IMG/VR virus record: IMGVR_UViG_3300011437_000021
Coordinates: 1-33,354 of that record
From: a virus
Lineage: Duplodnaviria; Caudoviricetes
Length of the DNA stretch: 33,354 nt
Direction: 5' to 3' (one strand)
A program made the position numbers and the translations under genes. The notes beneath the pieces were generated by a model. It had not been told where the DNA came from, did not search any database, and worked only from the letters and a program-made list of their open reading frames with translations. This document shows positions 4,763 through 20,790 of the stretch, in pieces (position 1 is the first letter of the stretch; each line of letters starts with the position of its first letter).

Positions 4763-4837
4763 GCCGGGGTAGCTCAGTGGTAGAGCTGCTGTTTTGTAAA
4801 CAGCGGGTCGGGGGTTCGATCCCCTCCCCCGGCTCCA
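4763..4837 (+). tRNA. tRNA-Thr(UGU)
   Basis: GCCGGGG/CCCCGGC acceptor stem, GCTC-AGTGGTA-GAGC D arm, GCTGT-TTTGTAA-ACAGC anticodon arm, TTCGATC T loop, encoded CCA. Confidence 0.95.
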
Positions 4838-9050: not shown

Positions 9051-9074
9051 CAGAAGCCAGAGGAGGGTAGCTAT

Positions 9075-9332
9075 ACGCCAATGTTTGAGTACAAATGTGA
9101 TACATGCGAACGCCCCGAGGAGCGCTACTTTGCGACCCTCGCCGAGCGCGACAAGTTCGAGGAGCATGGCGCTAAGCCGTGCAAACCGGGCGCGAACCTC
9201 ATCAACCGGAAGTGTGCCGGCACGATGAAACGCCAGCTCTCGGCGTCGAACTTCAAAGTCAACGGCTACTGTGCGGCCAACGGCTACGAATTCAACGGGA
9301 CGCAGACTATTCACAACAAAGGGTTGAAGTAA
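9075..9332 (+). CDS. FmdB-family zinc-ribbon protein (start ACG 9075 or ATG 9081)
   Basis: (M)PMFEYKCDTC...C...C.GTMKRQLSASNFKVNG matches the FmdB MP.YEY.C pattern; AGGAGG RBS 8 nt before ACG. Confidence 0.75.
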   Translation, partial: TPMFEYKCDTCERPEERYFATLAERDKFEEHGAKPCKPGANLINRKCAGTMKRQLSASNFKVNGYCAANGYEFNGTQTIHNKGLK

Positions 9333-9740
9333 ATGGCGGAACGTCTTGATGGTAAGCCTCGACGAGGGTGGACCAAGCCCGGAAGAGAAGCGGTTAAACA
9401 TCCTACGATCTTAGACATTGCATGGGTCGCAGGGGTATTTGAGGGTGAAGGGTCTGTGAGCGCCCCGCACGGTAGTCGAGGGTCGATGACTGCTACCCTA
9501 GTTCAAAAAGACCTGTGGCTGTTAGACAGAGTGGTAGAATTGTTTGGCGGCCACTACTACCTTTCAGGCGGATATACCACAAAAACTAATTCTTCCGGCA
9601 AGTCTACAGTGTGTGGACGATGGGAGATAACAGGGCCTAGAGCACGAGGCTTTGTATTCACAATTTTTTCCTTTCTATCGCCGCGCAGAAGGGCCCAAAT
9701 TAAGGCGGCACTGGGGGGTAATACCGTTGCCAATGTATGA
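9333..9740 (+). CDS. LAGLIDADG homing endonuclease (single motif, free-standing)
   Basis: DIAWVAGVFEGEGSV motif; A/T-ending codons unlike flanking genes. Confidence 0.8.
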   Translation: MAERLDGKPRRGWTKPGREAVKHPTILDIAWVAGVFEGEGSVSAPHGSRGSMTATLVQKDLWLLDRVVELFGGHYYLSGGYTTKTNSSGKSTVCGRWEITGPRARGFVFTIFSFLSPRRRAQIKAALGGNTVANV

Positions 9741-11261: not shown

Positions 11262-11284
11262 GGCATACATCTTGCAGGAGGGGC

Positions 11285-11314
11285 TTGACACCATTCAGGC
11301 CCTTCCTGCATAAT
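11285..11314 (+). promoter_or_regulatory. sigma70-type promoter embedded in an inverted repeat
   Basis: TTGACA 11285-11290, 18 nt spacer, CATAAT 11309-11314; IR TGCAGGAGGGGCTTGA / TCAGGCCCTTCCTGCA spans 11273-11310. Confidence 0.6.
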
Positions 11315-11364
11315 CACTGTGTCGACTGACCCTACGTTAATGGGTTTTACGGAGTAACGCTCCT

Positions 11365-11871
11365 ATGGGAAAAATTGTTCTTTTAGGGCATGTGTTTGAT
11401 CGGTTAACTGTTACGGCAGAGGCTGGTCGAGACAATTTCGGTGAGGTTCTCTGGGCGTGTCGCTGTGCGTGTGGTGAAATACGAACCATCCGCTCTAGTG
11501 CCTTGAGAACTGGTAAACACAAAAGTTGTGGTTGCCTGAAAGCCGATAAGATTCGAGAACGATCTGTCACTCATAACGGTAGTCAAACGTCTGAGTATAG
11601 ATCGTATCGAGCAATGTTGCGCAGATGTTATGATCCTCGGCATCGCGCATATCCGTGGTATGGCGGGCGTGGTATTAAAGTCCACCAACTGTGGCGAGAG
11701 GATTTCTTGGTATTTTTCGTCGATTTAGGGCCCCGACCAGAAGGTTGGACTCTTGATCGCATAGATGCCGATCGCGACTACGAGCCGGGAAATTGTCGCT
11801 GGGCTCCGTGGTCCGTACAAGCAACAAATAAGCGACGACCCTCATACGCTCTACCTCTACTAAGCGTATAG
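11365..11871 (+). CDS. HNH homing endonuclease (free-standing)
   Basis: W.C.C.CG...KSCGC N-terminal module, YGGRGIKV, TLDRIDADRDYEPGNCRWA; AT-rich codons. Confidence 0.85.
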   Translation: MGKIVLLGHVFDRLTVTAEAGRDNFGEVLWACRCACGEIRTIRSSALRTGKHKSCGCLKADKIRERSVTHNGSQTSEYRSYRAMLRRCYDPRHRAYPWYGGRGIKVHQLWREDFLVFFVDLGPRPEGWTLDRIDADRDYEPGNCRWAPWSVQATNKRRPSYALPLLSV

Positions 11872-11872
11872 G

Positions 11873-11984
11873 ACCCTCTCAGGCTCTGGGTTAGTGAGCT
11901 GTTCAGTAGAGAACAGTGAACAGTTTCCCACTTATTAGACAGGATACTGTCAGGATAAGTGGTTAATCCAGAAAGAGTTAGGGT
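11873..11984 (+). ncRNA. structured 5' leader of the major capsid gene
   Basis: Nested stems ACCCT/AGGGT, TCTGGGTTAG/TTAATCCAGA, CTGTTC/GAACAG, CCACTTAT/ATAAGTGG, GACAG/CTGTC. Confidence 0.5.
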
Positions 11985-11990
11985 AGCTAT

Positions 11991-12923
11991 ATAGCTTTGA
12001 CAATCGGACAGGGAGTTGCCGTTTCCTATCCAGCCGTGCTGAACTTCAAGCGGAAAGCGGCCAATCAGTGGGTCGAGTCTGCGTTCCTGCGCGAACTGGA
12101 GCGGCAGAACGCGGTCGAACGCGCATCACTCGGCCCCACCATCGAAAAGACGCTGGACTACCAGCGCAACCCCGGCGCGGCGTTCCTGGCGACGGACCTG
12201 CAGCCGACCAGCATGGCGAAGACCGAAGTGCTGACGGCTGCGTCGTACGACGTCGCTGAAATCTCCGTCCCCATCGTTTGGTCGAAGAAAGACGAAGTCC
12301 AGAACCCGACTGAGAATCAGAAGATTGCACTCGTGAAGGCGCTGCTGTCGAACGCTATCGACTCGCACGACGACCTGATCGAGCAGTACATCTTCGCAAC
12401 CTCGACCAACGGCTTCCTCGGACTCGACACCCACATCACCGATGCCGGCACCGGCTCGGACGGTGGGATCGACAGTTCGGTCAACCTCTGGTGGAGGAAT
12501 CAGCAGGCCACCTACGTGGATGACACGGACATCGAAGCCGCGTTCACCACGGTGTGGAATGCCTGCGCGAAGGGCAGCGGCTCCAACCTGCTCCCGACCC
12601 TGATGGTCAGCGACGGCGCGACCCAGGCCCTCTTCGAGGGGACACAGCAGGCGAATCAGCGCTACATCGACACCCAGGAGCTGAAAGCCGGTTTCAAGAT
12701 CCTTGGTTTCAAGACCGCGCGTTACGTGTTCAGCCAGTACGCAGACACGGACGTCAACTTCCTCAACTCGAAGAACTTCCAGCTCGTCGTGTCGAAGGAG
12801 TACTTCCGGGACCGGGGCGAAACGCAGGAGATCCCGAACGCGAACGGCTTCGTGTCGAAGATCTACTCGGCGCTCCAGACCTGCACCAACAACCGCAGCC
12901 GCCTTGGCGTTGCCCACGTGTGA
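11991..12923 (+). CDS. major capsid protein (start ATA 11991 or TTG 11997)
   Basis: About 310 aa after scaffold; strongly G/C-ending codons; motifs such as NGFLGL, GGID, WWRNQ and C-terminal TNNRSRLG resemble HK97-fold podovirus capsids. Confidence 0.85.
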   Translation: MALTIGQGVAVSYPAVLNFKRKAANQWVESAFLRELERQNAVERASLGPTIEKTLDYQRNPGAAFLATDLQPTSMAKTEVLTAASYDVAEISVPIVWSKKDEVQNPTENQKIALVKALLSNAIDSHDDLIEQYIFATSTNGFLGLDTHITDAGTGSDGGIDSSVNLWWRNQQATYVDDTDIEAAFTTVWNACAKGSGSNLLPTLMVSDGATQALFEGTQQANQRYIDTQELKAGFKILGFKTARYVFSQYADTDVNFLNSKNFQLVVSKEYFRDRGETQEIPNANGFVSKIYSALQTCTNNRSRLGVAHV

Positions 12924-17989: not shown

Positions 17990-19375
17990 ATGGCACTCTC
18001 AGCGGCGACGGTTTGGGAGATCCGCACCGCAGGCGCGGCGACGAATGGCGGAGGGTTTGTCACGGGAGCGGCAGGGACGGACTATTCTCAGCAGGATGCC
18101 AAGAACACGGTAGGGAATAATATCTCTACTACTGATGCGGTCGCAGTAGGCACGGGTGTCATTACCTCTGCCACAGCGACATTCACGTCAGCCATAGTTG
18201 GAAACATCATCTATCTGCAAGGCGGAACGGGCGCACTCGCTGCTGGACGGTATCAAGTCACTGTCTTTACAAGCTCTACATCAATCACGGTAGACCGCAA
18301 CGTCGCAGCAGGCACCGGGATCACGATGAACATCGGAGGCGCGCATAGCGATCCGGCACTCGTGGCTGCGGTCGTTGTCGCGGCGAATAGGGTCTACATC
18401 AAGGCAGGCACGTATAGCATCACCAGCGCCACACCGAATGTGGCGGGTGGATGTGCCAGTATTGCTGTCACGCGAACAATATGGGAGGGGTATCAGACGA
18501 CCCGCGGTGATTTCGGCACGCCACCCACCTTACTCGCAAGCGGGATTAGCACAGCCAAAATAGTCGTCGTTCCGTCATCGAGTGGCAATGATACGTTGCT
18601 TGTGAATATCACCATAGACGGTGATGATCTTACCTCGATCCGTGGATTTGCTGCTGAGGGCGCGCCGAGAGTGTCATTGAGAGGATGCACGGCCATTGAT
18701 TGCACAAACAATGGGTTTGCTATAGCCGGAGCAACGTCAGCAATGGTGCTATGTCGAGCGACTGGATGCACGACGACGAGCGCAGCGATGCAAATCAGCG
18801 GCACCACAATGATCGGGTGTATTTCACACGACAATGAAGTCACGGGAATTGCGGTCACCTCGAACGGCACGCTAGTCCACTGCATCTCATACAACAATAC
18901 AGGTGGCAGTAGTTTTGGGTTCGACCTGTTTAACGCAAACGGGGTCACCATGACGAACTGTGTCGCGTATGGCAATGGCACTGATGGAGTCGGATCAACA
19001 AATGCGCTCACGAGTCCGCGATTTATCAATTGCATTGCCGAAGCCAATGGCGGAGTCGGATTTGACCTCACAGGAATGACCTCTCCATCGGTATTTAACA
19101 ACTGCGCCACATTCAATAATACGAGCGGGTCTATTACGGGGACACCGTCTTACAACATCGGATTTGTCACGGGAACAGCCTCGTTCTTTACGAATCCGGC
19201 GAGTGGTGATTTTAGCCTTAACACCACGGCAGGTGGAGGAGCCGCAGCGAGAGCCGCTGGCCTGCTTGGCGTGTTTCCTGGTGGTCTGACGACAGGCTAT
19301 CTCGACATCGGCGCGGCGCAACATGCCAATCCGGCGAGTTCTGGCGGGCAGAGTGTATCGATTTTTGGTGGGTGA
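17990..19375 (+). CDS. beta-helix tailspike-like protein
   Basis: Repeated ..NC.A..N...GF units; C-terminal F.NP..GDFSL...DIGA.Q motif. Confidence 0.7.
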   Translation: MALSAATVWEIRTAGAATNGGGFVTGAAGTDYSQQDAKNTVGNNISTTDAVAVGTGVITSATATFTSAIVGNIIYLQGGTGALAAGRYQVTVFTSSTSITVDRNVAAGTGITMNIGGAHSDPALVAAVVVAANRVYIKAGTYSITSATPNVAGGCASIAVTRTIWEGYQTTRGDFGTPPTLLASGISTAKIVVVPSSSGNDTLLVNITIDGDDLTSIRGFAAEGAPRVSLRGCTAIDCTNNGFAIAGATSAMVLCRATGCTTTSAAMQISGTTMIGCISHDNEVTGIAVTSNGTLVHCISYNNTGGSSFGFDLFNANGVTMTNCVAYGNGTDGVGSTNALTSPRFINCIAEANGGVGFDLTGMTSPSVFNNCATFNNTSGSITGTPSYNIGFVTGTASFFTNPASGDFSLNTTAGGGAAARAAGLLGVFPGGLTTGYLDIGAAQHANPASSGGQSVSIFGG

Positions 19376-19381
19376 TTCATC

Positions 19382-19933
19382 ATGACCTTCACTGCTATTG
19401 TTGCCAAAGATCCAAACGTTGCTTGGGCTGCAGGTCTGTTTGAGGGAGAAGGGTGCTTCTCTTTTGGCAGTGGAGATACCGGCAACAGAAGCCTGCGGGC
19501 AATGATTACCATGACCGACCTAGATGTTTTGGAGAAGTTTCAATCTGTAGTGGGTATGGGGACTATTCGGAAAAGAAAATTGAACCCCCCACATAAGCAA
19601 CAGTGGTCGTGGTATATCAATTCTTTTCTAGAATTTCAATCGTTGGCTGTTATGTTGTGGCCTTGGTTATGTTCACGACGTCGAGCCAAATTACAAGAAC
19701 TTTTCGACCGATACGATGCGTTAGAGCCTGTCTCTCTAAAGTTGCGTATTGATAGAACAGCAGATATTAAAGCTGCACTCATGGCTTTATCTGCTGTACC
19801 TTTGTGGGGTAGACGTTGGAAACCTGGTAAAACCCAAAACGACATTGCTAAGGAGTTTGGAGTATCTCCCGGCTGTGTTTCTTTGATCAAACGTACTCTA
19901 TTAGGGGGTGCCTTACGACGTTCTCAGCCATAG
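19382..19933 (+). CDS. LAGLIDADG homing endonuclease with C-terminal HTH
   Basis: VAWAAGLFEGEGCF, MTDLDVLEKF...G.GTI, TQNDIAKEFGVSPGCVSLIK; AT-rich. Confidence 0.82.
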   Translation: MTFTAIVAKDPNVAWAAGLFEGEGCFSFGSGDTGNRSLRAMITMTDLDVLEKFQSVVGMGTIRKRKLNPPHKQQWSWYINSFLEFQSLAVMLWPWLCSRRRAKLQELFDRYDALEPVSLKLRIDRTADIKAALMALSAVPLWGRRWKPGKTQNDIAKEFGVSPGCVSLIKRTLLGGALRRSQP

Positions 19934-20790
19934 TCGCCATCGTCGCTGACCGGCTCAACCTTACGTCGGTTGCTGCACTCACCCGCATCGGCACAGAAGT
20001 CAACGACCGCTACCGAGAGGTCATGTCGGGAGTCGGACTGCAAACGTCTATCCGCACGACGATTTCGCAAGCGGTGACAGTCGGCAACAACCAGGTCGTA
20101 TTCAGTTGCCAGAAGATCTTCACGATCTTCGACAACTACGGCCGCTCGGTTACGTCGATCACGCGCTCGGGGACGACGGCCACGGTGACGACGGCTACGG
20201 ATCATGGGTACGCGACGGGTGTCTCGGTAAAAGTCGCAGGGGCTGTTGAAACCGCATACAACGGTGTTTTCGTCATTACCGTGACTGGTGATACTACGTT
20301 TACGTACACCGTGTCAGGGTCTCCGTCCACACCAGCCACTGGCACCATCACCGTCGAGCTGCTGCAAACGCAGTGGATTCTCGGCGAGCGCACGATGGAC
20401 GAGCTGCGGATGATGACGATTCAGTCCGATCCGCCTCAGAACTGGGCGCCTGCGAACATGAACGCGGACACGGTAACAGCCCAACTCGACGTCATTCCGT
20501 CGTCAGCGTACATCCTCAACGCCGATGTCGAGATCAACATTACCAATCTGGCCGGCTCGAACGTGCCCGGCTTCGCACAGGATTTCCACGATATCCTGGT
20601 GCGTGGGGCCTTGGCCGACGAGCTGATGAAGATGGAGAAATACAGCGAAGCAGAGACTCAGGAGGGTAAGTTTGAGAAGCGCTTGTCCGAACTGCGCCTC
20701 TACATCGCGAAGTCAAACGGCCTCGATATCTTCCAGGGTCGTAACGCAGGTATCGGCCTGGCCAACGGCTTTCACGGGCTGGTGAGCTAA
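19915..20790 (+). CDS. head-tail adaptor with inserted E1-FCCH-like domain (probable ACG start; first ATG 20023)
   Basis: Frame open from 19852; (M)TFSAIVAIVADRLNL...EVNDRYREV is an adaptor-like N-terminal helix; P.F..DFHDILV.GA C-terminal motif. Confidence 0.7.
   Translation, partial: TTFSAIVAIVADRLNLTSVAALTRIGTEVNDRYREVMSGVGLQTSIRTTISQAVTVGNNQVVFSCQKIFTIFDNYGRSVTSITRSGTTATVTTATDHGYATGVSVKVAGAVETAYNGVFVITVTGDTTFTYTVSGSPSTPATGTITVELLQTQWILGERTMDELRMMTIQSDPPQNWAPANMNADTVTAQLDVIPSSAYILNADVEINITNLAGSNVPGFAQDFHDILVRGALADELMKMEKYSEAETQEGKFEKRLSELRLYIAKSNGLDIFQGRNAGIGLANGFHGLVS

Follow-up and report, generated by a model that had tools for sequence, protein, structure and literature searches.

A LAGLIDADG endonuclease gene occupies the start of the head–tail adaptor gene in the virus record analysed here (the window: the whole linear stretch of 33,354 bases, about 46% complete, i.e. 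a fragment), within a late operon of terminase, portal, capsid, adaptor and tail genes. The endonuclease begins with codons that belong to the adaptor, and the adaptor frame resumes behind it with a recoded copy of those codons that carries ACG at the Met1 position. We consider it probable (roughly 0.78) that a homing cassette has replaced the 5′ end of the adaptor gene and that the adaptor is initiated at ACG behind a new Shine–Dalgarno (SD) sequence, with translational coupling. The duplicate is the ordinary half of this arrangement; the ACG, together with a family-wide link between such starts and endonucleases, is the part that should surprise specialists.

In the proposed mechanism, the endonuclease would home into adaptor alleles that lack it, close to the start of the gene, and repair would copy in the endonuclease along with the 5′ end that it carries, replacing the recipient’s 5′ end at each event. 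The recipient’s first adaptor codons would become the N-terminus of the nuclease, the 3′ end of the element would bring the new SD, the ACG and the recoded codons, and the adaptor would then be initiated at ACG with formyl-methionine, aided by coupling to termination of the endonuclease. Coordinates are collected in Table 1.

Table 1. Features of the window that bear on the adaptor start and on other near-cognate starts
Feature	Position	Strand	Basis
Strong SD and ACG (9075) at Met1 position of zinc-ribbon gene	9061–9077	+	SD score; orthologues
Second LAGLIDADG-like gene, between two zinc-ribbon paralogues	9333–9740	+	Motif seen in sequence
HNH endonuclease gene 5′ of major capsid gene	11365–11871	+	PHROGs; 69% identical HNH in L181
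Structured capsid leader ending in ATA (11991–11993) at capsid Met1	11866–11993	+	Folding z; orthologue starts
Native adaptor ribosome-binding region, now serving endonuclease	19367–19381	+	SD duplex −5.9 kcal/mol
Single-motif LAGLIDADG endonuclease ORF, 183 aa	19382–19933	+	PF00961 above cut-off; model; fold matches
Captured adaptor codons 1–9 (MTFTAIVAK), endonuclease N-terminus	19382–19408	+	Orthologue N-termini; endonuclease alignment
Motif helix WAAGLFEGEG, residues 15–24	19424–19453	+	Endonuclease sequence
C-terminal helix-turn-helix (HTH), about residues 152–173	within 19382–19933	+	HTH matches in close relatives, below cut-off
7-bp hairpin over SD, predicted, weak	19893–19911	+	z +1.0, not more stable than shuffles
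Strong SD from endonuclease codons L-G-G-A	19903–19910	+	−10.6 kcal/mol
ACG at adaptor Met1 position, inferred start codon	19915–19917	+	Orthologue alignment; X1, X5 contigs
Recoded replacement copy of adaptor codons 1–9 (xTFSAIVAI)	19915–19941	+	Sequence, orthologues
Head–tail adaptor ORF, 291 aa, with inserted beta domain	19915–20790	+	Homologues with PF24175; model; fold matches

The two genes and the duplicated start

The endonuclease ORF scored 25.6 bits against PF00961 (cut-off 23.1), and its structure model (pLDDT 90.5) gave I-CvuI, I-OnuI and I-CreI as best fold matches. One helix with an acidic catalytic residue and an alpha-beta-beta-alpha-beta-beta-alpha core place it in the single-motif LAGLIDADG class, with E21/E23 invariant across 18 aligned endonuclease sequences. 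It shares core fold and motif helix with I-CvuI and I-CreI but is only about 19% identical to them, adds a C-terminal HTH and is not intron-encoded. By the tests run, the gene classes as a free-standing homing endonuclease, optional at a conserved locus, foreign in composition and without intron or intein, because 14 unique adaptor loci lack it, its GC3 is 0.39 vs 0.74 in the adaptor, it has its own stop codon and nothing in Rfam matched. An intein was ruled out, since the ORF ends in a stop of its own and the adaptor is read in a different frame, as was a group I intron, for which neither the catalytic core nor an exon-U/intron-G junction was found.

The downstream gene, the sole adaptor copy in the contig, is assigned by homology and predicted fold, taking as criteria for an SU10-type adaptor the PF24175 profile, an adaptor fold and a position before the tail nozzle genes. 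The window protein itself had no Pfam match; a 79% identical orthologue (P0003) reaches the PF24175 cut-off, and those of loci L005 and L017 exceed it. Fold matches were to portal–tail proteins of VP1, A4, GP4, KHP30 and SU10, at low TM-scores (0.28–0.33). Residues 1–36 are conserved, with N15, R24, N30 and Y33 invariant in 40 adaptor sequences, and residues 3–14 and 19–40 form predicted helices, both lost if translation began at 20023. The inserted beta domain (20146–20365, residues about 78–150) is common to many virion proteins, resembles the E1 FCCH/endosialidase barrel and is missing in shorter orthologues.

The endonuclease ORF opens with MTFTAIVAKDPNVAWAAGLFEGEG and the adaptor frame from 19915 reads TTFSAIVAIVADRLNL. 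As the initial annotation had noticed, MTFTAIVA at the start of the endonuclease returns as TTFSAIVA where the adaptor resumes, nearly the same peptide in different codons: over codons 2–8 the copies differ at one first, no second and five third positions, a bias that gives the second copy the pattern of translated sequence. The matching GCC codons that it had placed at 19403 and 19936 are there, and so is the overlap of the endonuclease stop with the second copy, which shares its letters with the last six endonuclease codons plus the stop (19931–19933, within codons 6–7 of the copy). Its statement that the last codons, LGG, supply the ribosome-binding site stands for the source of the site and fails for the position, the ORF ending LLGGALRRSQP; insertion after codon 8 should read after codon 8 or 9, as K9 is the orthologue residue in 13 of 20.

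The exact MTFTAIVA start occurs in 8 of 20 full-length close adaptor orthologues (MTFTAIVAK in 5), and TFSAIVAI, from the downstream copy, in none; at the protein level the displaced native piece is closer to empty alleles than the carried copy is. No other endonuclease homologue begins with MTFTAIVA (0/248), and an adaptor-like M(A)[TNS]F start is found in 14 of 249 endonuclease proteins. The annotation had named two findings that would speak against capture, adaptor homologues without such an N-terminus and a MTFTAIVA start native to related LAGLIDADG proteins, and these counts gave neither. Its proposal that the element took over the adaptor start and carries a replacement 5′ end gains support from the orthologues, from GC3 and from recurrence of the arrangement among relatives. 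That the element bears a diverged version of the end it displaces, reading in frame into the remainder of the gene, agrees with a gene-end-replacing element, here at the 5′ end; the native ribosome-binding region overlaps the stop (19373–19375) of the upstream beta-helix gene. A six-frame search of the window for TFTAIVA matched at least 6/7 residues at the two copies only, with one other place at 5/7. In a generic junction test the duplicate pair alone reached p about 0.05, and we accept it as real despite this marginal score because orthologues carry the same peptide.

Probable initiation at ACG and competing explanations

Judged from sequence, the full-length adaptor is likely translated from ACG without splicing; this near-cognate start, its oddest feature, had drawn no comment in the initial annotation. 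The SD before the ACG is the second strongest among 32 scored starts, and is paired in the predicted folds of L017 and L005 as in the window. The endonuclease stop lies 16 nt 3′ of the ACG, and coupling to endonuclease termination probably helps the adaptor start. The next in-frame ATG, GTG or TTG is at 20023 (codon 37), an ATG with a modest SD (−5.2), and the database protein call for this adaptor, P0001, lacks the first 36 residues. Contigs of two of eight runs (X1, possibly the source sample, and X5) span the ACG with at least 31 letters on each side at low depth (2.5–7), and no other letter at that codon is listed in any of the eight runs. E. coli is reported to initiate at ACG and AUC with methionine, ACG giving 0.1–1% of AUG when uncoupled (bioRxiv 10.1101/063800). 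A strong SD with a stop 16 nt away would raise initiation at ACG by coupling (PMC12548453); re-initiation is itself described as IF3-sensitive (PMC2268962), which, like the low yield of ACG, counts against ample adaptor output by this route. C-to-U editing of the ACG was ruled out by reasoning, as ATC, ATA and ATT would be left unexplained, and a phage tRNA decoding odd starts was rejected because the window’s only tRNA gene is a tRNA-Thr(TGT) (4763–4837, immediately 5′ of a small terminase-like gene).

The best experimental parallel to this start, in our comparison, is mycobacteriophage Corndog. The Corndog, Firecracker and YungJamal genomes have an HNH gene that precedes the tape measure gene, in which ACG replaces ATG; for Corndog an N-terminal peptide right after the ACG was reported, with no splicing and no obvious loss of expression, and the mechanism was left open in 2015 between ACG initiation and bypass (PMC4351075). 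In Corndog DNA (L201, 27158–27765) the HNH gene ends with an SD, a stop, 4 nt and the ACG, a geometry repeated in L017 (with ATC) and L179 (with ATT), and it starts M-A at a TGA–ATG overlap that is the tape measure start place in relatives. As in the window, an endonuclease occupies the start of a virion gene, ACG stands at Met1, there is no splicing (reported for Corndog, likely for the window) and a G-rich SD comes from the endonuclease’s last codons. Unlike the LAGLIDADG enzyme of the window, the Corndog nuclease is an HNH protein whose overlap is at most two codons (M-A), with no recognisable recoded duplicate, and its stop precedes the ACG by 4 nt, whereas that of the window endonuclease follows by 16 nt. 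The cited sections of that report treat the ACG as a single oddity and do not invoke homing (PMC4351075).

The initial annotation had also considered that the upstream ATG exon might be joined to the downstream part by splicing or by a ribosome hop, which found no support: no Rfam match, no U/G junction, no stop after take-off and a 533-nt gap. Initiation at ACG predicts the adaptor N-terminus (M)TFSAIVAIVADR, whereas a hop or splice using the upstream copy predicts TFTAIVAIVADR. Bypass in T4 gene 60 combines matched take-off and landing codons with a stop and stem-loop after take-off and a short gap. A ribosome starting at the upstream ATG might here take off at TTC (codon 3) or GCC (codon 8), both identical in the two copies, and land 533 nt downstream, but that gap is ten times the one in gene 60, no stop follows either take-off codon and the nascent peptide would have at most eight residues. 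The codons before the landing site keep their amino acids with third-position changes, which bypass does not require; L017 has other matched codons and L005 has none. Although the Corndog authors kept bypass open, the non-tryptic N-terminal peptide of that phage begins directly after the ACG (PMC4351075), and we regard this route as quite improbable. Very improbable, too, is a programmed frameshift near GGG GGT yielding an endonuclease–adaptor fusion that is assembled or cleaved. The adaptor frame runs open from 19852, the G-run looks like a shift cassette, and Corndog and L017 have GGG immediately before the stop; however, the direction of the shift would have to differ (−1 in the window, +1 in L017, L179 and Corndog), a search of 1780 candidates turned up no longer, fused homologue (a weak argument), and the position of the Corndog peptide tells against fusion as well (PMC4351075). 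A cryptic intron is scarcely credible. Its precedent is a related LAGLIDADG protein (match H12) in a spliced, hard-to-classify intron of the LittleE capsid gene (PMC3706429), but the entire interval is coding, Rfam searched as far as E of 5 gave nothing, neither the window nor L017 offers a junction that keeps the frame with a U ending the exon and a G ending the intron, junction pairing is no better than random, a strong SD ahead of the second copy would serve no purpose and RT-PCR found no splicing in Corndog (PMC4351075). Among the contigs of the eight runs, which show presence only, no join skipped the whole insert.

It is unlikely that adaptor synthesis begins at the ATG at 20023 or scarcely occurs, the ACG being the relic of a start in a phage that is defective or depends on a helper. 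That ATG is canonical and has an SD, and the phage is uncultured and its contig incomplete enough for another adaptor to exist; set against this are the conserved residues 1–36 with their four invariant positions and two predicted helices, an intact ORF, the repeated loss of ATG to different codons in other lineages, and the normal growth reported for Corndog with the same layout (PMC4351075). Assembly error or chance similarity, to which the marginal junction score and the shallow supporting contigs might point, is barely worth entertaining: two assemblies carry the ACG and none another letter, orthologues carry the same peptide and the layout recurs.

Near-cognate starts and endonucleases in related loci

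Two further lineages among the fetched endonuclease loci sit in adaptor genes. In L017, L019 and L111, VTFTE has been captured with a GTG start and the restart is an ATC 4 nt after the stop, at position 1 of the Pfam profile, with no canonical start until codon 48; in L005, MTF has been captured and the restart is GTG. All 14 unique endonuclease-free adaptor loci start canonically, with ATG (8) or GTG (6); two further endonuclease-free loci start ATG/GTG, and the tally leaves out L198 and L199. A GALR tail closes 5 of 249 endonucleases (four clusters), and at the L–R junction each of the five could encode x[TN]F in frame −1 with no canonical start possible, a combination open to 7 of 1059 other xR positions; these protein tails point to ACG in P0125, P0128, P0241 and P0245. 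P0125 and P0241 differ precisely at the captured first codons, and GALR tails are scattered over a quick endonuclease tree in which 5 of 61 branches are well supported.

A single-protein scan of viral_contigs returned no close endonuclease or adaptor relatives, only inserted-domain matches or the same contig; the adaptor scan of genome_contigs found nothing, and the window endonuclease had no match among cultured phages. Of the 15 loci from the metagenome scan, one is the window itself (L115), another (L111) duplicates L019, and the remaining 13 are unrelated proteins or endonucleases without the layout. A search for the MN[FY]-start pattern gave one unrelated locus, recovered twice. In a survey of junctions, 15 of 96 unique loci (109 given) fell at p < 0.05, by eye nine gene-end duplications, one short start-region repeat and five chance-like or unclassified cases; six cultured-phage LAGLIDADG loci had no terminal duplication. 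N-terminal copies occur in L016, L018 and L106, all restarting with ATG. The C-terminal copies, in viral contigs L010, L011, L013, L025 and L030, form a mirror layout in which the endonuclease ends with the upstream gene’s last 5–13 residues. The N-terminal duplicate of L016 (820–862) is a separate stub (MSAMSDYLGGG, stop), after which the endonuclease has its own GTG start (1368 onward).

Near-cognate codons also stand at Met1 of two other genes in the window. The capsid leader folds strongly in both the window (z −5.0) and L181 (z −6.4), with 8 of 32 pairs changed on both sides between these two sequences, and the stem that closes it is formed by the HNH stop region and the stretch with the SD and near-cognate start. 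In L181 the capsid start is ATC, behind the 69% identical HNH gene, and in both phages a TTG two codons past the near-cognate start is a possible fallback. Capsid ATG is kept in 18 loci without an upstream nuclease and in three with a different one (L186, L188 and L191; the L188 gene is nuclease-like by eye, Pfam finding its HTH only). In the HNH cassettes of the window (11262–11996) and L181 (2760–3510), hairpins surround the HNH start, one of them covering the HNH SD. In L191 (3222–3510) a group I-like insert, recognised by eye, interrupts the capsid gene after about codon 5 with an HNH gene directly upstream, which makes collaborative homing possible there.

The zinc-ribbon ACG at 9075 has an ATG two codons later as a possible fallback and no nuclease directly upstream; the L179 orthologue starts with ATT, 4 nt past a LAGLIDADG stop, and nine other zinc-ribbon starts are ATG. 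The second LAGLIDADG-like gene has no Pfam match and a 49% identical homologue in L179, and LGG codons at its end supply the SD and TTG start (9727) of the next zinc-ribbon gene, a start that gene callers would place at 9733 or 9737. An identical 12-base motif at 9064–9075 and 11980–11991 precedes the two different near-cognate-start genes, and a near-identical motif precedes the ATT start of L179 and the ATC start of L181.

Over the three gene families, a near-cognate codon occupies Met1 at 5 of 10 loci that have an endonuclease immediately upstream vs 1 of 44 that do not (Fisher p 4e-4) and, outside the window, at 3 of 7 vs 0 of 43 (p 2e-3). The tallies were compiled by hand, and the loci are related, so that the p-values overstate independence. 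We read the link between near-cognate starts and upstream endonucleases as an association in these sequences.

Proposed homing without splicing and the loss of ATG

Mobile ORFs of fungal mitochondria form gene hybrids in Allomyces atp6 and Glomus atp6, atp9, cox2 and nad3 (PMC3630166), and Tremella has elements with an N-terminal duplication (PMC7315562). Like the window element, they are intron-less, often LAGLIDADG, and bring a diverged copy of the gene end that they displace; unlike it, they live in organelles, mostly affect 3′ ends and carry long duplicates, and the cited accounts describe no new ribosome site or near-cognate start (PMC3630166, PMC7315562). WHO elements of Torulaspora and Lachancea likewise home by replacing an end of their target gene, without splicing and with allele-specific cleavage, but are yeast nuclear elements at the 3′ end of FBA1, encode an intein-like zinc-finger protein and leave the start codon unchanged (PMC7282813). 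By this comparison the window element would work as these fungal end-replacing and WHO elements do, mirrored to the 5′ end. The seg and mob genes of T4-like phages resemble it in intron-less homing, overlap or coupling with neighbours and clustering near essential genes, yet are GIY-YIG or HNH, their coupling concerns the endonuclease’s own expression, and the cited sections describe no captured N-terminus with a recoded copy (PMC2988022, PMC10055350). In the open-licence literature, supplements aside, we found neither a phage 5′-replacement cassette nor a link between near-cognate starts and homing.

Why ATG is lost can be read in several ways. The likeliest, at an even chance, is that its loss confers immunity to the element’s own cut. 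Wobble changes can go unheeded by LAGLIDADG enzymes whose sites lie in protein genes (PMC3159444), and the start codon alone allows a non-wobble change that leaves the protein unchanged; non-wobble changes (start codon, T4S, K9I) are on this analysis better resistance candidates than the recoding, to which the initial annotation had ascribed a cleavage-resistant 5′ end. At 24–27 nt from the point of insertion, the ATG falls beyond a plain 22-bp site; for ACG to give immunity, the footprint would have to be wider (HTH), or the codon inherited from an ancestor in which less had been captured. L191, which keeps its ATG where the intron-like insert breaks the capsid 5′ end, fits immunity as one case, judged by eye. 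We would give distinctly poorer odds to the loss enforcing dependence of the essential gene on endonuclease translation, and equally poor ones to the near-cognate codon being an improvised start tolerated owing to the strong SD. In one contig of run X4 (depth 3, with 30 letters on its shorter side) an in-frame 354-nt deletion (window 19407–19762) takes out the nuclease domain and spares the captured start, the HTH and the adaptor overlap; it would preserve coupling, a weak hint of dependence. Cases that run counter to ATG loss are the ATG restarts in L016, L018 and L106, the capsid ATG in L186, L188 and L191, and the ACG at 9075 with no endonuclease directly upstream.

A broader proposition, which we advance tentatively, and as less likely than not, is that homing endonucleases from unrelated families systematically deprive the essential phage gene downstream of its ATG, putting in its place a near-cognate codon that works fully only through endonuclease termination. 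Stop and start would then be joined by the SD–stop–start geometry or by a long stem, as in the capsid leader; the cassette would be both immune and addictive, loss or breakage of the nuclease frame costing the virion protein; and bacteria would have an efficient, undescribed route to non-AUG initiation.

The adaptor locus would tie the ten-year-old open question of the Corndog tape measure start to endonuclease insertion at gene starts, with matched near-cognate cases (ACG, ATC, ATA and ATT) across three virion-operon gene families, and would show a selfish gene able to occupy an essential phage gene without splicing. It raises the question of how abundant structural proteins are made from codons that in E. 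coli yield no more than about 1% of AUG, and predicts that annotation pipelines truncate such genes, as in P0001.

Relatives of the endonuclease also interrupt genes outright. In L034 and L037 they split a gene, which we take from its motifs to be SbcC-like, into two separately started pieces, and in L153 (mycobacteriophage BaboJay genes 89–91) a relative divides an RNA ligase gene in the same way.
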